In this document: positions 12,741-43,078 of the stretch, piece after piece
Layout of the letters: each line of letters starts with the position of its first letter
Position numbering within the stretch: position 1 is the first letter of the stretch
Assembly (NCBI GenBank): GCA_040006715.1
Contig: JBDTWL010000011.1
Location: 3,728-67,727, forward strand
Reading direction: 5' to 3'
DNA: 64,000 nucleotides
Source: Ferruginibacter sp.
GTDB lineage: Bacteria; Bacteroidota; Bacteroidia; Chitinophagales; Chitinophagaceae
Notes under the pieces: model-generated
Databases searched by the model: none
Seen by the model: the letters and a program-made list of their open reading frames with translations, nothing else
Told to the model about the DNA's origin: nothing
Translations under genes and position numbers: made by a program

Positions 12741-13583
12741 ATGTTTGAAATGTTTAACCTTCCGTTCATGCTCCAGGCCTTTGCTGCTGCTGTCATCACC
12801 GGGGTCTTGTTATCCTATTTAGGCGTTCATGTTGTGGGCAGGGGGATTGTTTTCGTGGACCTTGCACTGGGCCAGATATCTTCATTGGGAGTGGCTTTTG
12901 CAGCATTCATTGGCACAGGACTCACATCCATTCCGCTGATATTTACCTTATCAGGCGCTTTACTGATGTCATTCATCAATATTAGGGATAAGCGCTTAAA
13001 GCAGGAAGCGATCATTGGAATATTATATGCTTTCGCATCAGCAATAACGGTATTGTTGATCTCCAAAACAGCGCATGGGGATTCTGATATACAGGAAGTG
13101 CTTTTCGGAAATATTTTGTCAGTAAGCTGGCAGCAGATCACAACAATAGGAATGGTTTTCAGTGCCATCCTGCTTGTCCAGTTAATTTTCTTCCGGAAAT
13201 TCTTTGCGTTGACCGAATCATTTGAAAACGGCGTAAATCATCTTATAGGGATCTTCAATATCTGGAATTTCCTTTTTTATATTTCCATTGGTCTGGCCAT
13301 AGTTTTTGCGGTCAAAATAAACGGGGTCATCCCGGTCTTTGCTTATTTGATCATCCCTGCAGTATCGGCGATCATGCTTACAAAAAATAAAGGGGCTGTT
13401 TTAATAATTGCGATCATCATCAGTATTCTGGGAGGCTTCTTTGGATTGAATTTTTCATTTCATTATGATTTTCCTGCAGGTTCATCTATTGTAGTGGTCC
13501 TGGGTGGCATTTTTATATTGGCATCTGTTTACAGGATCATCAGGGGTATCACCGGTAAAAAACCAATGGAAGAGGCAGTGTAA
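12741..13583 (+). CDS. Metal ABC transporter permease (ZnuB/MntB, ABC-3 family)
   Basis: LGVHVVGRGIVFVDLALGQ, LFGNIL and IIPAVSA motifs; multi-pass membrane protein. Confidence 0.92.
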   Translation: MFEMFNLPFMLQAFAAAVITGVLLSYLGVHVVGRGIVFVDLALGQISSLGVAFAAFIGTGLTSIPLIFTLSGALLMSFINIRDKRLKQEAIIGILYAFASAITVLLISKTAHGDSDIQEVLFGNILSVSWQQITTIGMVFSAILLVQLIFFRKFFALTESFENGVNHLIGIFNIWNFLFYISIGLAIVFAVKINGVIPVFAYLIIPAVSAIMLTKNKGAVLIIAIIISILGGFFGLNFSFHYDFPAGSSIVVVLGGIFILASVYRIIRGITGKKPMEEAV

Positions 13584-37647: not shown

Positions 37648-38712
37648 CTATCCCACCGAAAATTCATCCAATACTTTAATGTATTTACTGTTTTCCCTGA
37701 ACATTTGCAATCCCGAAGTAGTATCCATGTATGATAGCTTATAGTTTTTTTGATTCATCCTGCTTATCCTTGAAAGGATATCCAGGTGACGAATGATCTC
37801 TTTCCATGCAAAGAAGATAGAATGCCTGGGGTCATACATATGGGTGGGTTCACTACCGGCTCCGTTCAATTCAATGATGGAAAAATTCCTTCCCTGTCTT
37901 AACTCTTCCCAGCAATTATACCTTATATCAAGCCTTCCAAAATAAAAACCATTGATCTTTTTACAGGCATCGTCGATTGAATTAATAAGTGATTCATCGA
38001 TCAAATGGCTTGCATCCAGGAATTTGGCGCCCCGCACATGATTTCCGTAAGGTACCATTACACGACGCTGCCCTGCCTCAAGAACAGTATCAAAATCACT
38101 TCCGTCCGTACGTCGCAATGTTTCCAGCTGAAGGATAAAACGTTTATCCCTGCAAAGCAATTGTTCGATCGTTGATATCCCGTCACCGGTTAAGGATAAA
38201 AATTCCTTTTGCACGATCCCTGATATCTTGCCTTTTGCTTCGTTTGGATAACGATAATAAAAAATACCCACTTCATTTTCATAAGGGATAAATTCCTGTA
38301 TAAGAAAATCCACTTTTGATGATGCAATGTACCCTGCCAGCTCCTTATCATTCTCAATTTTCTTTACTGCTTTGCCCTGCATTCCTATATCCGGCTTGCC
38401 AATAAGGGGATATTGAAGGCCCCGGTCATTTATTTCTTTCAGCACATCTTTTAAAAATGTATTTGCTTTAAAGAATAAAGTAGCAGGATAATATTGTTGG
38501 GGCATCAGGTCATAGATCTCTTTTTTTGATTCAAGCAGGAAACCGCCGTTCTTTATTGTTGGGTTAGATGTACTGAAAAAGAAAAAAGAGCGTGCACGGA
38601 TGCCAAGCCATAGCCAATAAAAATAGATCGGCATATAAACAATATGAAAGGGCCAGTACTCCCAATTAAATAACTTTATAAAGAAAGGTTTATGCAATAT
38701 TGTCTTTAACAT
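37648..38712 (-). CDS. ATP-grasp (D-Ala-D-Ala-ligase-like) protein of unknown specificity
   Basis: NWEYWP N-terminus, LIGKPDIG, LIQEFI and FYFGRLDI...IIELNGAGSEP ATP-grasp motifs. Confidence 0.82.
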   Translation of the reverse strand: MLKTILHKPFFIKLFNWEYWPFHIVYMPIYFYWLWLGIRARSFFFFSTSNPTIKNGGFLLESKKEIYDLMPQQYYPATLFFKANTFLKDVLKEINDRGLQYPLIGKPDIGMQGKAVKKIENDKELAGYIASSKVDFLIQEFIPYENEVGIFYYRYPNEAKGKISGIVQKEFLSLTGDGISTIEQLLCRDKRFILQLETLRRTDGSDFDTVLEAGQRRVMVPYGNHVRGAKFLDASHLIDESLINSIDDACKKINGFYFGRLDIRYNCWEELRQGRNFSIIELNGAGSEPTHMYDPRHSIFFAWKEIIRHLDILSRISRMNQKNYKLSYMDTTSGLQMFRENSKYIKVLDEFSVG

Positions 38713-38722
38713 ACATTGATGA

Positions 38723-39460
38723 TTAAAATATATCAGCGGTCTCCCGTATAGATGAGACCAGTTTCATTTCTTTATTGTGGATACTTCTGTCCTTCAGGTC
38801 GAGGTACCTCATATTACAACGAAGAAATTCCATTGCAATACCCGTTACACTTACTGTTGATAAAAGCCCGTTGCGGTTCATGTTCAGGTCATTTTGCGTA
38901 TCCCCATCACCGGTAAATTTATGAAATGCGAAGATATCATCCTGTGCAGGAAGCGGGTTCTTATTCAGGAATGCTGCGAACCATTGTTCTCTTTTTTTCA
39001 CCACCTTTTCATCATACAAAGTTGAAGAGGACCAGATATAAGGCCGGTATTTTTTTAACTGCCTGCAATGCTTTGTTGAACCTGTCCACCTGCATTCATA
39101 CAGGCAGTTATCGAAAATGATCATGGTAAATGGTTCGATACCAGAAAGGGCCATATGCGTGAAATACCTTACGGGCATGATCGCATTGATGATCTCCAGG
39201 AAAATGATGCCCCTGCTTTTCCTGTAAGGTGCCATACTGGTATGCTTTTGAAAAGCCCCGTTCAAAAGGACAGCGGCGCATCCATTTTCATTCATAGCGA
39301 TCCAGGTCCCTCCTGCATCTGCATCCCTGGGATAAATGATCCTGTTGCCATTTACAAAATACAATTCGGGTGGAATGGCCTGTTTGCGGATAAATTTCTC
39401 ATCGCGGTTTGAAGTGATGTATATCCTGTCTTTGACGGGAATAAATGTTACTGTGCACAT
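38723..39460 (-). CDS. NRDE/TANGO2 family protein (Ntn-hydrolase fold)
   Basis: MCTV N-terminus, SNRDE, D..AGGTWI, LLNG, SRG and WSSSTLY motifs. Confidence 0.95.
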   Translation of the reverse strand: MCTVTFIPVKDRIYITSNRDEKFIRKQAIPPELYFVNGNRIIYPRDADAGGTWIAMNENGCAAVLLNGAFQKHTSMAPYRKSRGIIFLEIINAIMPVRYFTHMALSGIEPFTMIIFDNCLYECRWTGSTKHCRQLKKYRPYIWSSSTLYDEKVVKKREQWFAAFLNKNPLPAQDDIFAFHKFTGDGDTQNDLNMNRNGLLSTVSVTGIAMEFLRCNMRYLDLKDRSIHNKEMKLVSSIRETADIF

Positions 39461-39948
39461 GATCTGCGGTATTTAATGGTAGAAGTTGCAACGCCAAAAC
39501 CCTCAGGAATATTAATAGAAGAAACCTCGTTGATACCAACCCTGATCAGGGCCATATGATGTACGGTATGTTCCAGGTTATAGATGAGTTCACGGTAATA
39601 ATTGGTTTCAACCCCGATCGATTCTGTTGATTGTTCATCATAGCTGGAATCAAGTAATAAGCTTTTATTGCCCTTATCAATATTGTTGCAGATCATGTCC
39701 ATCAATTCGGTTGCAAGATCTTTGTCTGTTTCAATACGGATATCTCTTTTCCTTTTTTCATAATTCACAACACCTGTTTCATAACCATTGTATAGACAAA
39801 TGTATAATTCAATGATATGCCTTACATGCTGGCCAATAGAAGCATTGAACAATATCTTACTAGGCTGGGAGTATTCCCTTTCAGTCAATTGCTCAAGTGT
39901 TTCTTTCAGTTGCGAAAAGGAATTGTTGATGGCTGAATTTAATTGCAT
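39448..39948 (-). CDS. DinB family protein
   Basis: SIGQHVRH, VNYEKRKRD and LEHTVHH metal-binding His pattern. Confidence 0.9.
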   Translation of the reverse strand: MQLNSAINNSFSQLKETLEQLTEREYSQPSKILFNASIGQHVRHIIELYICLYNGYETGVVNYEKRKRDIRIETDKDLATELMDMICNNIDKGNKSLLLDSSYDEQSTESIGVETNYYRELIYNLEHTVHHMALIRVGINEVSSINIPEGFGVATSTIKYRRSCAQ

Positions 39949-39986
39949 AAAATTGATTTTAGTTTATTACCTGATGTTGAAGGCTG

Positions 39987-40718
39987 TTATTTAAAATTAT
40001 ATGAAACTCCTAACCCGAAAGTATTTGCCTTATTACGGAAACGATCATTCCTGGTACCATCGGGTGCGACCTGTTCCACGTTCTCGGTCTTATATTCTAC
40101 AAATACAAATTGGTAAACTGCTTTGATCCCCCAGCGTTGTGTAATCCTGTACTTTAAAAAGAATTCAGAGTTGAGGCTTCCTCGATCGTGATCTCCTGTC
40201 AACAATAAGTTGAAAGAAGCAGGCTTTGCCATAGGTTCTATCTTGGTTGCACCGTTTGCTTTGAATATGGCGCTACTCTCTCTCCCGAATGTGAACCCTG
40301 CCAGGTCAATATTAAAACCCGCATTCCACTTGCGGCTGAAATTATATCCAAGGTTGATACTTATATTAACAGAATTCGTCAATGGCCTTTGCACGGTAAG
40401 GGTATCCTGGTAATCGGTTCTTTGTCCCGCAAAGAATATTAAGAATGGAATTGTATTCGTACGTGCCAGTCTTGCAGGGGCAGTAGTAAAATCTGTTTTG
40501 GTTCCAAAGTAGCTTGTCCACCTGAGTCCAAGGCCTGCTTCCCATTTCTTCCTCTTGCCTATTTTCCAGTTGTGAACGTAAGAAGCAGCTGCTGTACCCT
40601 GGTATTTACCAATAGTGCCAGTAAGATCAACAAACTGGTCAATGCGTGAAGATCTATTTTGCGCATTGGTTGTAGAAACAGCAAACAGCACACTAATAAT
40701 CAATAAATATTTTTTCAT
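39987..40718 (-). CDS. Hypothetical outer-membrane beta-barrel protein
   Basis: Signal peptide, alternating amphipathic strands, C-terminal FGLGVSYNF. Confidence 0.7.
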   Translation of the reverse strand: MKKYLLIISVLFAVSTTNAQNRSSRIDQFVDLTGTIGKYQGTAAASYVHNWKIGKRKKWEAGLGLRWTSYFGTKTDFTTAPARLARTNTIPFLIFFAGQRTDYQDTLTVQRPLTNSVNISINLGYNFSRKWNAGFNIDLAGFTFGRESSAIFKANGATKIEPMAKPASFNLLLTGDHDRGSLNSEFFLKYRITQRWGIKAVYQFVFVEYKTENVEQVAPDGTRNDRFRNKANTFGLGVSYNFK

Positions 40719-40761
40719 TTTAAGCGTAATTAAGAACTACGAAGGGTTTTTATCAAGAGAT

Positions 40762-41166
40762 TTATTTACAAATAATATTTTTTATAAACACTAAGGCTTC
40801 ATTCCTGTATATGAGCAATAAGCCAAAACAACTCAGGAATACAAGCAAAGCATATATGAATAACTGCCCGCCATCATTCTTTACTACCAGGCCAAGTTTT
40901 GTCAGGTGAAAAAATAGGGCACCAGACATCACTCCCATTCCAAGTACTGCTCCCAACCAGGTGGTCCTGGGATAGATTATTAATATGGATGCGATCAGTT
41001 CTACAATGCCCGAAGCGATCCTGCCCCATGGTTCCATCCCAACTGTAGTAAAAATATAAACCGATTCCTCCGAAGCACTGAACTTGAAGTACAATGTCTG
41101 GAGCATAATAATGGCGGCGACCAGCCTCAGTGCCCACGTTCCTATTACTGAATAATTAATTGTCAT
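40762..41166 (-). CDS. DoxX family membrane protein
   Basis: LQTLYFKF, EPWGRI..G..E and GALFFHLT.LG motifs. Confidence 0.9.
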   Translation of the reverse strand: MTINYSVIGTWALRLVAAIIMLQTLYFKFSASEESVYIFTTVGMEPWGRIASGIVELIASILIIYPRTTWLGAVLGMGVMSGALFFHLTKLGLVVKNDGGQLFIYALLVFLSCFGLLLIYRNEALVFIKNIICK

Positions 41167-41191
41167 TGTTTAAATTTATTTTATATACAAT

Positions 41192-41252
41192 CCGCCTTCG
41201 CCAAGATCAGGCTGACCATATATTGTCATGTTGAGCTTGGCGAAACATAGAC
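41192..41252. repeat. Inverted pair of REP-like elements
   Basis: CCGCCTTCGCCAAGATCAGGCTGAC followed by GTCATGTTGAGCTTGGCGAAACATAGAC. Confidence 0.7.
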
Positions 41253-41261
41253 AGTATAAGG

Positions 41262-41729
41262 TCAATGAAATATTTTTTGCCAGTTAGCATCAGCATGTTG
41301 CTTTAATGTGCTCTCATTCTTATTCCAGGATTTCAAAGTATTATTGAATAAGCGGTTGTAAAAAAGATAAAGCTTACCGGAAACTATCTTGAAGGTTTCG
41401 GGGTCAACATTTACTTTAGAACCATCATTTCCCATCGCATAAGCACACCATCCGCCATATTGTGGTTCATAAGCAGCAGGATTCTTTTTAAAGGCTTCTT
41501 TATTTTCAGCAGAAGAAAAACGATAACTGATCCCTTCATAAAAAACATTACCCAATTCTTTTTTCCCTTTTATCGCTTTTCCTTCCTTAAAATATGCAAC
41601 AGGATCATACCCCTGGATAGCGATGCCATCATCAAGGTTGAATTGGCTTTTACGAACCAGTGCATCCTGCGAAAATGCATTCAGTATAAATGTGCTTAGA
41701 ATCACAGTGAGGAAAGGCTTTATTCTCAT
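41262..41729 (-). CDS. Exported YHS-domain protein (paralog 1)
   Basis: GYDPVAYF, YRFSS.EN...F...P..YEPQYGGWCAYAM and KLYLFYN motifs; ATG 41729 gives a clean signal peptide and lies downstream of a -7 box. Confidence 0.92.
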   Translation of the reverse strand: MRIKPFLTVILSTFILNAFSQDALVRKSQFNLDDGIAIQGYDPVAYFKEGKAIKGKKELGNVFYEGISYRFSSAENKEAFKKNPAAYEPQYGGWCAYAMGNDGSKVNVDPETFKIVSGKLYLFYNRLFNNTLKSWNKNESTLKQHADANWQKIFH

Positions 41730-41777: not shown

Positions 41778-41793
41778 TGTCGGGCAAATGACA
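41778..41793 (-). promoter_or_regulatory. Crp/Fnr-type box of the YHS-DoxX-...-ATP-grasp operon
   Basis: Minus strand TGTCA-TTTGCC-CGACA; canonical TATATTTG ends at 41749, 29 nt away. Confidence 0.8.
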
Positions 41794-42040: not shown

Positions 42041-42364
42041 ATGAATAAGATGATCACAAAAGCAAATTTTAAGAAAGAAGTAGCAGAAAGCAATACCCTG
42101 TCATTGGTTCAATTTAAAACAGACTGGAATGGAGCTTCACAGATCGTATCTATGATATACGATGACCTGGCAAGATCATATAAAGGCATCGCAAATTTTC
42201 ATACAGTAGATTATGAAAATGAGCTGGCCCTGGTGAACGAGTATGGTGTAATGGAAGTCCCTACGATCCTTTTTTTCAAAGGGGGGATGATGATCGATCA
42301 TGTTGTGGGGCTGGTTCCAAAAAATGCGCTGATATCGAAGATCGAAAATCATTTATCTAAATAA
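42041..42364 (+). CDS. Thioredoxin-fold protein lacking all cysteines
   Basis: LVQFKTDWNGAS replaces WCGPC; cis-Pro motif EVPTILFFKGG retained; no Cys in 107 aa. Confidence 0.88.
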   Translation: MNKMITKANFKKEVAESNTLSLVQFKTDWNGASQIVSMIYDDLARSYKGIANFHTVDYENELALVNEYGVMEVPTILFFKGGMMIDHVVGLVPKNALISKIENHLSK

Positions 42365-42397: not shown

Positions 42398-43078
42398 ATG
42401 TACAACGAACTAAAATATGTTTACCTGAAAAGCCATCCACTTTTCGCAAACATGTCTGAAAAACAAGTTAATGATGCTTGTGAGCTGATGAAAGTAAAAA
42501 CCGTGTACCGTGGGGAGACATTTGATTATGGTGACGGGGATTATAGCAAAATATATCTTTTAATAAAAGGTAAGATCAAGATCACGCTTTGTGATGATAT
42601 GGACAATGAGTTGATCAAAGATATCCTTACAGCCCCGGATATTTTCGGTGACCTGAGCCTTGATGGCCGTCCATCAAGCGATGAATTTGCACAGGCATTG
42701 ATGGCAAATACAGTTGTATGTTTTTTCAATGCAACCGATTTCAAGAATATCCTCCAGGATAATGTTATGCTTGCCATGAATTATGCAAATACAGTGAATA
42801 ACAAACTCAAGAAACTGGAAAGCAGGCATTCAGACCTGGTATTCCATGATGCAAAGGCAAGGCTGATCCGTTTTATCAAGAACTGGGCAAAAACAGATGG
42901 CAACCGTATCGGCGATAAAATAATCCTGAACAATTATTTAACCCATAGTGATATAGCAGGTGTTATAGCTACTTCACGGCAGAGTGTGAATGTATTGTTC
43001 AATGAACTCCGTGATGCCGGTATGCTGATGTATGACAGGAAGAGGATACAGCTGAATGATATGATCGCTTGGAATTGA
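42398..43078 (+). CDS. Crp/Fnr family transcriptional regulator
   Basis: cNMP-binding-like barrel (IYLLIKGKIKI, DIFGDLSL) and HTH LTHSDIAGVIATSRQSV. Confidence 0.95.
   Translation: MYNELKYVYLKSHPLFANMSEKQVNDACELMKVKTVYRGETFDYGDGDYSKIYLLIKGKIKITLCDDMDNELIKDILTAPDIFGDLSLDGRPSSDEFAQALMANTVVCFFNATDFKNILQDNVMLAMNYANTVNNKLKKLESRHSDLVFHDAKARLIRFIKNWAKTDGNRIGDKIILNNYLTHSDIAGVIATSRQSVNVLFNELRDAGMLMYDRKRIQLNDMIAWN

Follow-up and report, generated by a model that had tools for sequence, protein, structure and literature searches.

The DNA analysed here, hereafter the window, is a stretch of 64,000 nucleotides (nt) from the Bacteroidota bacterium Ferruginibacter sp. (contig JBDTWL010000011.1 of assembly GCA_040006715.1, positions 3,728 to 67,727). 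Six minus-strand open reading frames (ORFs) follow one another from 41729 to 37648 and encode a YHS protein, a DoxX protein, an outer-membrane (OM) beta-barrel, a DinB-like protein, an NRDE/TANGO2 protein and an ATP-grasp protein. Here we explore this gene set, its conservation in related genomes and the amide chemistry that its core, a predicted ligase with NRDE and DinB-like partners, may perform. The features are, in gene order:

41778..41793, unstranded: Crp/Fnr-type palindrome TGTCGGGCAAATGACA (TGTCA-N6-TGACA, one mismatch), the box ahead of the first gene
41262..41729, minus strand: YHS protein of 155 residues with a signal peptide, exported, of the '(seleno)protein' type (NF041384)
40762..41166, minus strand: DoxX-family integral membrane protein of 134 residues (PF07681)
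39987..40718, minus strand: small OM beta-barrel of 243 residues with a signal peptide (PF13505, below cut-off)
39448..39948, minus strand: DinB-like four-helix metalloprotein candidate of 166 residues (DinB_2, below cut-off)
38723..39460, minus strand: NRDE/TANGO2-family protein of 245 residues with an N-terminal Cys (PF05742)
37648..38712, minus strand: divergent predicted ATP-grasp carboxylate-amine ligase of 354 residues (fold from AlphaFold and Foldseek)

The six genes form a single predicted operon. Gaps of 95, 43 and 38 nt separate the first four genes, the DinB-like and NRDE genes overlap by 13 nt, 10 nt lie between the NRDE and ATP-grasp genes, and no terminator-like sites were found between the six. 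The YHS frame can be extended to 41924 from a TTG start; the ATG at 41729 fits the homologues and the signal peptide, and the box lies about 50-65 nt 5' of the YHS start. An earlier note, made from the sequence alone, had described six co-oriented, tightly spaced genes with these 13-nt and 10-nt junctions under one box, all of which was verified, coordinates included.

Conservation was studied in a 401-genome sample of the phylum, in 80 named loci from genome contigs and in 98 loci with de novo ORF clustering. The ligase family is found in 86 of the 401 genomes. Among genomes with close orthologues the DinB-NRDE-ATP-grasp genes are adjacent in 15 of 17 loci over four families, most with YHS-DoxX upstream, and the same adjacency is seen in nearly all 80 named loci. 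Carriers include Ferruginibacter, many Chitinophagaceae, Mucilaginibacter polytrichastri, Pedobacter, Dyadobacter jejuensis, Flavobacterium aquatile, Flavihumibacter and Pollutibacter. In the 98 loci the ligase has an NRDE neighbour essentially always, a DinB-like neighbour in 91, DoxX in 72 and YHS in 64. A LysE-type translocator lies directly downstream of the ligase in 40 loci and a Crp/Fnr gene near the operon in 38, while DM13 (35 loci), YceI (27), an extracytoplasmic function (ECF) sigma factor with a zf-HC2 anti-sigma factor (25), a thioredoxin-like gene (19) and the thioredoxin-like DUF1223 (12) recur less often. Five of the six genes travel together across Bacteroidota, and their co-occurrence is far beyond chance. 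The earlier note had staked its proposal on the genes being found together in other genomes, and the neighbourhood comparison finds that they are. Its six-gene set has to be reduced by the OM barrel, a homologue of which occurs in only 22 of the 80 named loci; the barrel is a lineage-specific insert outside the conserved core. A literature search found no published description of the DinB-NRDE-ATP-grasp module.

The last protein gave no match in a Pfam scan, weak RimK/CPS-like matches in NCBIfam and nothing meaningful by phmmer against the PDB. An AlphaFold model built from an 88-sequence alignment reached a predicted local distance difference test (pLDDT) score of 97, as compared to 33 from the single sequence. 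Foldseek retrieved 404 PDB matches at E<=0.001 with this model, and the best 50 of the 404 are all ATP-grasp ligases: the cyanophycin synthetases 7ta5 and 7txv come first (E about 1e-11), then GshAB (3ln6), then Ddl/VanA, at about 15-19% identity to the best structures and a query-normalised TM-score of about 0.5. A profile search matched CphA2 (8fxh) at 1.9e-10 with the motifs aligned, and the KP..G..G loop, the GDGxST lid insert and the E-x-N metal site are shared with CphA2/CphA1 in the alignment. In the window protein these are K106 (KPDxGxxG), the lid G176-D-G178-x-S-T, R260-x-D262 and E281-x-N283; across the 88 ligase sequences K106, R260, D262 and N283 are invariant and E281 is conserved in at least 90%. 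Judged by the modelled fold together with the nucleotide-binding Lys, the glycine-rich loop and the Mg-binding motifs, the protein is a member of the ATP-grasp superfamily; its catalytic motifs are intact, and carboxylate-amine ligation is the predicted activity. Residues 1 to about 60 form a family-specific, aromatic-rich helical region with a WEYWP motif that replaces the usual N-domain.

The proposal of the earlier note would have failed had the protein been an ordinary Ddl/cell-wall ligase. It is not a Ddl: neither PF07478 nor the Ddl N-domain matches it, Ddl structures rank below CphA and GshAB, and the genome has a separate true Ddl on contig C96 (PF07478 at 177 bits). The family is large, one search having given more than 7000 clusters and another 2778 representatives, and where the sources give its members any name this is 'hypothetical protein' or 'D-alanine--D-alanine ligase'. 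A second copy lies in the same genome at C33:22581-23528 (locus L003 8579-9628; 38% identity), with no DinB, NRDE, YHS, DoxX or LysE neighbours; it adjoins a CCG-domain protein and is near a cluster of type III polyketide synthase, UbiA and methyltransferase genes. Other family members are fused to YqcI/YcgG (178 bits) or to MORN repeats (representatives P0249 and P0151).

The NRDE protein matches PF05742 (TANGO2) at 54.6 bits, with a cut-off of 22.6. Its sequence opens with MCTV, so that Cys2 follows immediately upon the initiator Met; residues 17-21 read SNRDE, and Asn67 is invariant. The MCTV start is kept in 90 of 91 homologues and the NRDE motif in 81 of 91; C2, R19, D20, E21 and N67 are invariant columns of the alignment. 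Cys2, N-R-D-E and Asn67 match the residues proposed to be catalytic in human TANGO2, in which the conserved Asn is Asn75, and the crystal structure of the human protein was read by its authors as a cysteine N-terminal nucleophile (Ntn) hydrolase for fatty-acid derivatives (PMC13044924). TANGO2 is structurally like lipid-amide Ntn hydrolases and binds acyl-CoA (PMC13044924, PMC11867700). The match of the NRDE profile to human TANGO2 (8sv7) is weak (E 0.37), and phmmer against the PDB gave nothing meaningful. In six loci, including those of Mucilaginibacter polytrichastri and Pedobacter sp. PAMC26386, NRDE and ATP-grasp form one ORF of about 595 residues, and additional fusions of this type occur among the representatives (P0122, P0124 and P0146). 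A functional pairing of the predicted ligase with the N-terminal-Cys protein is strongly supported, because the two stand side by side in almost all related loci and form one protein in six genomes; in this respect the ligase/hydrolase pair of the earlier note has been borne out.

The DinB-like protein is less readily classified. It scores 18.1 bits against DinB_2, under the cut-off of 24.8, its homologue in locus L141 scores 26.1 bits against PF05163 (cut-off 23), and neither profile searches of the PDB and NCBIfam nor phmmer against the PDB found a relative. Its invariant residues are H41-x-R43-H44, Y63, R66, R119 and H127-x-x-H130-H131, in 18 sequences from three operon variants. These weak Pfam matches and the histidine pattern would place it in the DinB superfamily. 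The gene stands beside the ligase also outside the orthologue loci, in 6 of 6 loci of other classes of the phylum and in 7 of 13 loci of distant ligase paralogues, which often carry YHS and LysE genes and have no NRDE gene; the DinB-like protein, rather than NRDE, is the ligase's most constant partner across operon variants. The 13-nt overlap with the NRDE gene (39448-39460) is conserved across homologous loci, and DinB-like proteins end in ...CAQ because the overlap takes in the start of the NRDE MCTV sequence, both being conserved together. In L102, from Dyadobacter, the two genes stand apart, and the DinB-like protein there ends in ITQ.

Among the envelope genes, the YHS protein matches NF041384 (YHS domain-containing (seleno)protein) at 135.3 bits with a cut-off of 70 and Pfam YHS at 27 bits, under the cut-off of 30.3; its single Cys lies in GGWCAY and is Cys, not selenocysteine (Sec). 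DoxX matches PF07681 at 32.3 bits (cut-off 23.6), and the barrel scores 26.5 bits against PF13505 (OMP_b-brl), just below its cut-off of 28.7. YHS and DoxX remain linked when they are moved downstream (L126 and L141), so the envelope components which the earlier note assigned to the pair do accompany it, even in rearranged gene orders. Between the OM barrel and DinB, L066, L088, L102 and about 30 other loci carry a pair of genes for a DM13 lipoprotein and a YceI-like protein that binds lipids; the pair is absent here. An envelope-side accessory, possibly with a redox role, would be made up of YHS and DoxX, joined in relatives by DM13, YceI and an OM barrel.

The module takes a different form in other classes of the phylum, where the ligase is the C-terminal domain of an alpha/beta-hydrolase::VTT(DedA)::ATP-grasp protein of 813-865 residues. 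The six such loci that were inspected (L137-L142) have the order GNAT5-PlsC-DinB-[abhydrolase-VTT-ATP-grasp], in which GNAT5 is PF13444, the OlsB/GlsB N-acyl amino acid synthase family, and the PlsC-like gene is PF01553. By comparison of coordinates, 44 of the 45 ligase-bearing genomes outside the window's class have a PF13444 gene 3-5 kb upstream of the ligase and in the same orientation. In L141 the order is GNAT5-PlsC-DinB-NRDE-[abhydrolase-VTT-ATP-grasp]-YHS-DoxX; this single locus ties every conserved element of the window operon to an aminolipid-type operon. Further fusions are LysE::ATP-grasp and NRDE::abhydrolase::VTT::ATP-grasp (P0260).

Two genes divergent from the operon lie on the other side of the box:

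42041-42364, plus strand: Cys-less thioredoxin-fold gene (Pfam Thioredoxin)
42398-43078, plus strand: Crp/Fnr-family regulator (cNMP_binding plus HTH_Crp_2)

The translation of the thioredoxin-fold gene, which lies 5' of the Crp gene, has no cysteine, and the gene recurs with Crp in 19 related loci. The divergent regulator probably binds the box and controls the operon. A Crp-type box near -65 of the first operon gene was also found in 22 related loci, mostly those that have the Crp gene as well; the loci with the ECF sigma and zf-HC2 anti-sigma genes, which there come after the ligase, largely lack the Crp gene. TGTCA-N6-TGACA sites occur nine times in the window (at 13117, 16705, 25028, 34348, 41778, 50312, 51225, 53336 and 55562) with 2.3 expected, a four-fold excess, and none of 100 shuffles had nine or more. 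Because of this over-representation across the window, the sites suggest a local Crp/Fnr regulon, to which the sigma-54 activator gene would belong as well as the YHS/ferritin-like, GMC and aquaporin blocks further downstream.

From operon structure, co-occurrence, fusions, folds and catalytic motifs we infer a class of substrate, the direction of the reactions and roles for the DinB-like, YHS and DoxX proteins. The interpretation we favour, tentatively and with slightly less than even confidence, is that an amphiphilic amino-acid derivative, such as the head group of an amino-acid lipid or an N-acyl amino acid, has an amide built and edited on it by a membrane-proximal trio of ligase, amidase and metalloprotein, with an envelope accessory and under stress-type regulation. 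The core trio (the DinB-like protein, the TANGO2/NRDE protein and an ATP-grasp enzyme of cyanophycin-synthetase/GshF type) would be cytoplasmic and close to the membrane. The ligase would activate a carboxylate as an acyl-phosphate and join it to an amine or amino acid. The NRDE protein, as a cysteine Ntn amidase or acyl-transferase, would cleave or transfer a bond of amide or acyl type in that molecule, so that the two might act as a make-and-edit pair in the manner of glutathionylspermidine synthetase/amidase. The DinB-like protein may contribute a further step that depends on metal and acts on this substrate as well. Most likely the trio would work on an amphiphilic membrane amide, for instance on an amino-acid lipid or N-acyl amino acid with a free carboxylate as its head group, a soluble thiol being less likely. 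A membrane amphiphile or an exported amino-acid derivative is proposed because the fusions and neighbours in relatives are DedA/VTT, alpha/beta-hydrolase, LysE, OlsB/GlsB-like and PlsC-like proteins.

A more specific proposal, which we regard as possible and on balance doubtful, is that the trio is the missing ATP-dependent machinery that extends and trims bacterial amino-acid-lipid head groups; one such step would be the attachment of a second amino acid, or of an amine, to their free carboxylate. Bacteroidota aminolipid head groups include Ser-Gly and Orn-Ser-Gly, and the ATP-dependent addition of taurine to the carboxylate of ornithine lipid is known biochemically with no gene assigned to it (PMC12971839).

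Several observations weigh against the membrane-amide interpretation. PF13444 has no match in the window's genome, which is 95% complete, and it is present in only 3 of the 21 sampled Chitinophagaceae, as compared to 16 of 21 for the ligase family; therefore the operon cannot require a lipid made by OlsB, GlsB or OlsF as its substrate in this genome. The operon of the window lacks acyltransferase, DedA and LysE genes. A classical transmembrane anchor in the N-terminal helix of the ligase was considered and rejected (Kyte-Doolittle maximum 1.02). Characterised DinB-superfamily enzymes act mostly on low-molecular-weight thiols, and the usual cargo of LysE-family exporters is soluble amino acids. 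The genome does have three ORFs of the GH3 family (OlsH-like), about 500-530 residues long (C1:41106-41861, C37:3500-4237 and C23:51298-52047), by which N-acyl amino acids might be made in another way. OlsH, an ATP-dependent lyso-ornithine-lipid synthase, belongs to the GH3 family (PMC12971839). The idea that NRDE stands in for an OlsB-type N-acyltransferase was not adopted, L141 carrying both.

The earlier note had a ligase/hydrolase pair making and recycling a small peptide or acylated metabolite, in a possible ligation/thiol pathway. In the alternative built on it, the product is a soluble small peptide or thiol-containing metabolite that is exported and redox-balanced by YHS and DoxX. We consider this unlikely, and it is nonetheless the best of the alternatives. 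Those DinB-superfamily proteins that have been characterised transfer thiols or depend on thiols, and GshAB is among the nearest solved ligases. A LysE-type exporter follows the ligase or is fused to it in relatives, while the thioredoxin-like DUF1223, the zf-HC2 anti-sigma factor and a thioredoxin-fold gene recur nearby. The single Cys of the YHS protein sits where some family members have Sec, to go by the name of NF041384. In two Sphingobacteriaceae loci (L096 5597-6364 in Mucilaginibacter and its equivalent in L106 in Pedobacter) the operon contains a stand-alone paralogue of the cysteine ligase CoaB (DFP C-terminal domain, 220 bits) between YHS and DoxX. This paralogue was found in only 2 of the 7 loci with ORFs listed and did not come out as a conserved neighbour among the 98. 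No cysteine-specific residue pattern was found either, and the DedA/VTT and alpha/beta-hydrolase fusions as well as the OlsB-like/PlsC-like operons are hard to explain with a soluble thiol. The window's genome already encodes BshA (557 bits) and BshC (399 bits), both above curated cut-offs, with no GshA found; an additional thiol pathway is therefore not needed, and the thiol part of the proposal did not gain specific support.

A bacillithiol-dependent step is possible, and one alternative builds upon it: the DinB-like protein would conjugate an electrophile or quinone to bacillithiol, NRDE would cleave the amide of the conjugate, an exporter would remove the product and the ATP-grasp enzyme would re-ligate what is salvaged. 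The presence of bshA and bshC, a fold that suits the role in the DinB-like protein, the LysE exporter of relatives and the stress-type regulators (Crp/Fnr or ECF sigma with anti-sigma) all agree with such detoxification, and DoxX relatives are tied to quinone and thiol stress in other bacteria. It is improbable nevertheless: the DinB-like protein has no significant match to any curated transferase family, the known bacillithiol-conjugate amidase is of a different family, and the linkage to aminolipid operons in other classes would be left unexplained.

Very improbable is a role of NRDE as a heme-trafficking protein like Shewanella HtpA, in which the operon would serve envelope cytochromes or quinone-linked proteins and the ligase would be loosely connected. 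Bacterial TANGO2 homologues have been reported to aid cytochrome c maturation (PMC10470608), and DoxX and DM13 neighbours suggest electron transfer. Against this, NRDE is fused to ATP-grasp in six genomes and translationally coupled to DinB, the crystal structure of human TANGO2 is accompanied by non-specific heme binding only (PMC13044924), and the conserved set holds no cytochrome or heme gene. That the six genes are mere neighbours with no shared function, for which one could cite the poorly conserved OM barrel and the lack of YHS/DoxX in about a quarter to a third of loci, is contradicted by the recurrence of the five-gene set across orders, also when rearranged, by the conserved 13-nt overlap and by the gene fusions, and can practically be dismissed.

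If the head-group proposal is right, the NRDE/TANGO2 family would be a family of lipid-amide hydrolases or transferases, which would give a defined reaction to a family tied to a human metabolic disorder. TANGO2 deficiency is a human disease, and the reaction of the protein is disputed between heme carrier, acyl-CoA binder and Ntn hydrolase. The operon locks a bacterial TANGO2 relative to a predicted ATP-dependent amide ligase, by gene fusion in some genomes, and to a metalloprotein candidate; it is open to genetic work, and lipidomics or metabolomics could then reveal the substrate. Should the lipid interpretation hold, it would also tell which genes extend the head groups of bacterial amino-acid lipids at the expense of ATP. 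We know of no ATP-grasp, TANGO2 or DinB-type aminolipid tailoring enzyme.

Among known systems, the aminolipid pathways OlsB/OlsA, GlsB/GlsA, OlsF and OlsH/OlsI are approached by the other-class form of the module, in which DinB and the ligase share one operon with OlsB/GlsB- and PlsC-family genes; the window operon itself has neither PF13444 nor PF01553 and is not an OlsB/OlsA- or GlsB/GlsA-type operon. The DinB-like protein resembles the DinB/YfiT-type thiol S-transferases and the DinB domain of EgtB in its weak Pfam superfamily match and its His-rich pattern (H41/H44, H127, H130/H131), but it has four invariant Arg, which are not typical of these enzymes, and no FGE-sulfatase domain. Thiohistidine-dipeptide clusters (NHISS plus ATP-grasp) were rejected as a match, since these need a DinB+FGE sulfoxide synthase of roughly 430 residues (PMC13674229), whereas the window protein has 166 residues and no FGE domain.

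The ligase shares the G-domain core of the cyanophycin synthetases CphA1/CphA2 over its residues 93-287 only; their N and M (Mur-ligase-like) domains are absent from its 354 residues, which sets it apart from that family. With GshAB (GshF) it has the ATP-grasp domain in common but not the GshA domain. The NRDE protein agrees with human TANGO2 (8sv7) and Shewanella HtpA in its PF05742 membership, Cys2, N-R-D-E and the conserved Asn, but for neither of these has a context of ligase and DinB-like partners been described, such as the one found here. Lastly, Escherichia coli Gss and trypanothione synthetase-amidase combine a cysteine-nucleophile amidase with an ATP-grasp amide synthetase that act on one small amide. 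The DinB partner of the window module and the membrane or exporter fusions of its relatives are both missing from Gss. The Gss amidase is of the CHAP family, whereas the amidase candidate in the window belongs to the TANGO2 family and the ligase has no Gss-family match. The resemblance is one of logic only, and it extends to the six fused NRDE::ATP-grasp relatives, which have the domains in the same order as Gss, with the amidase at the N-terminus and the ligase at the C-terminus.

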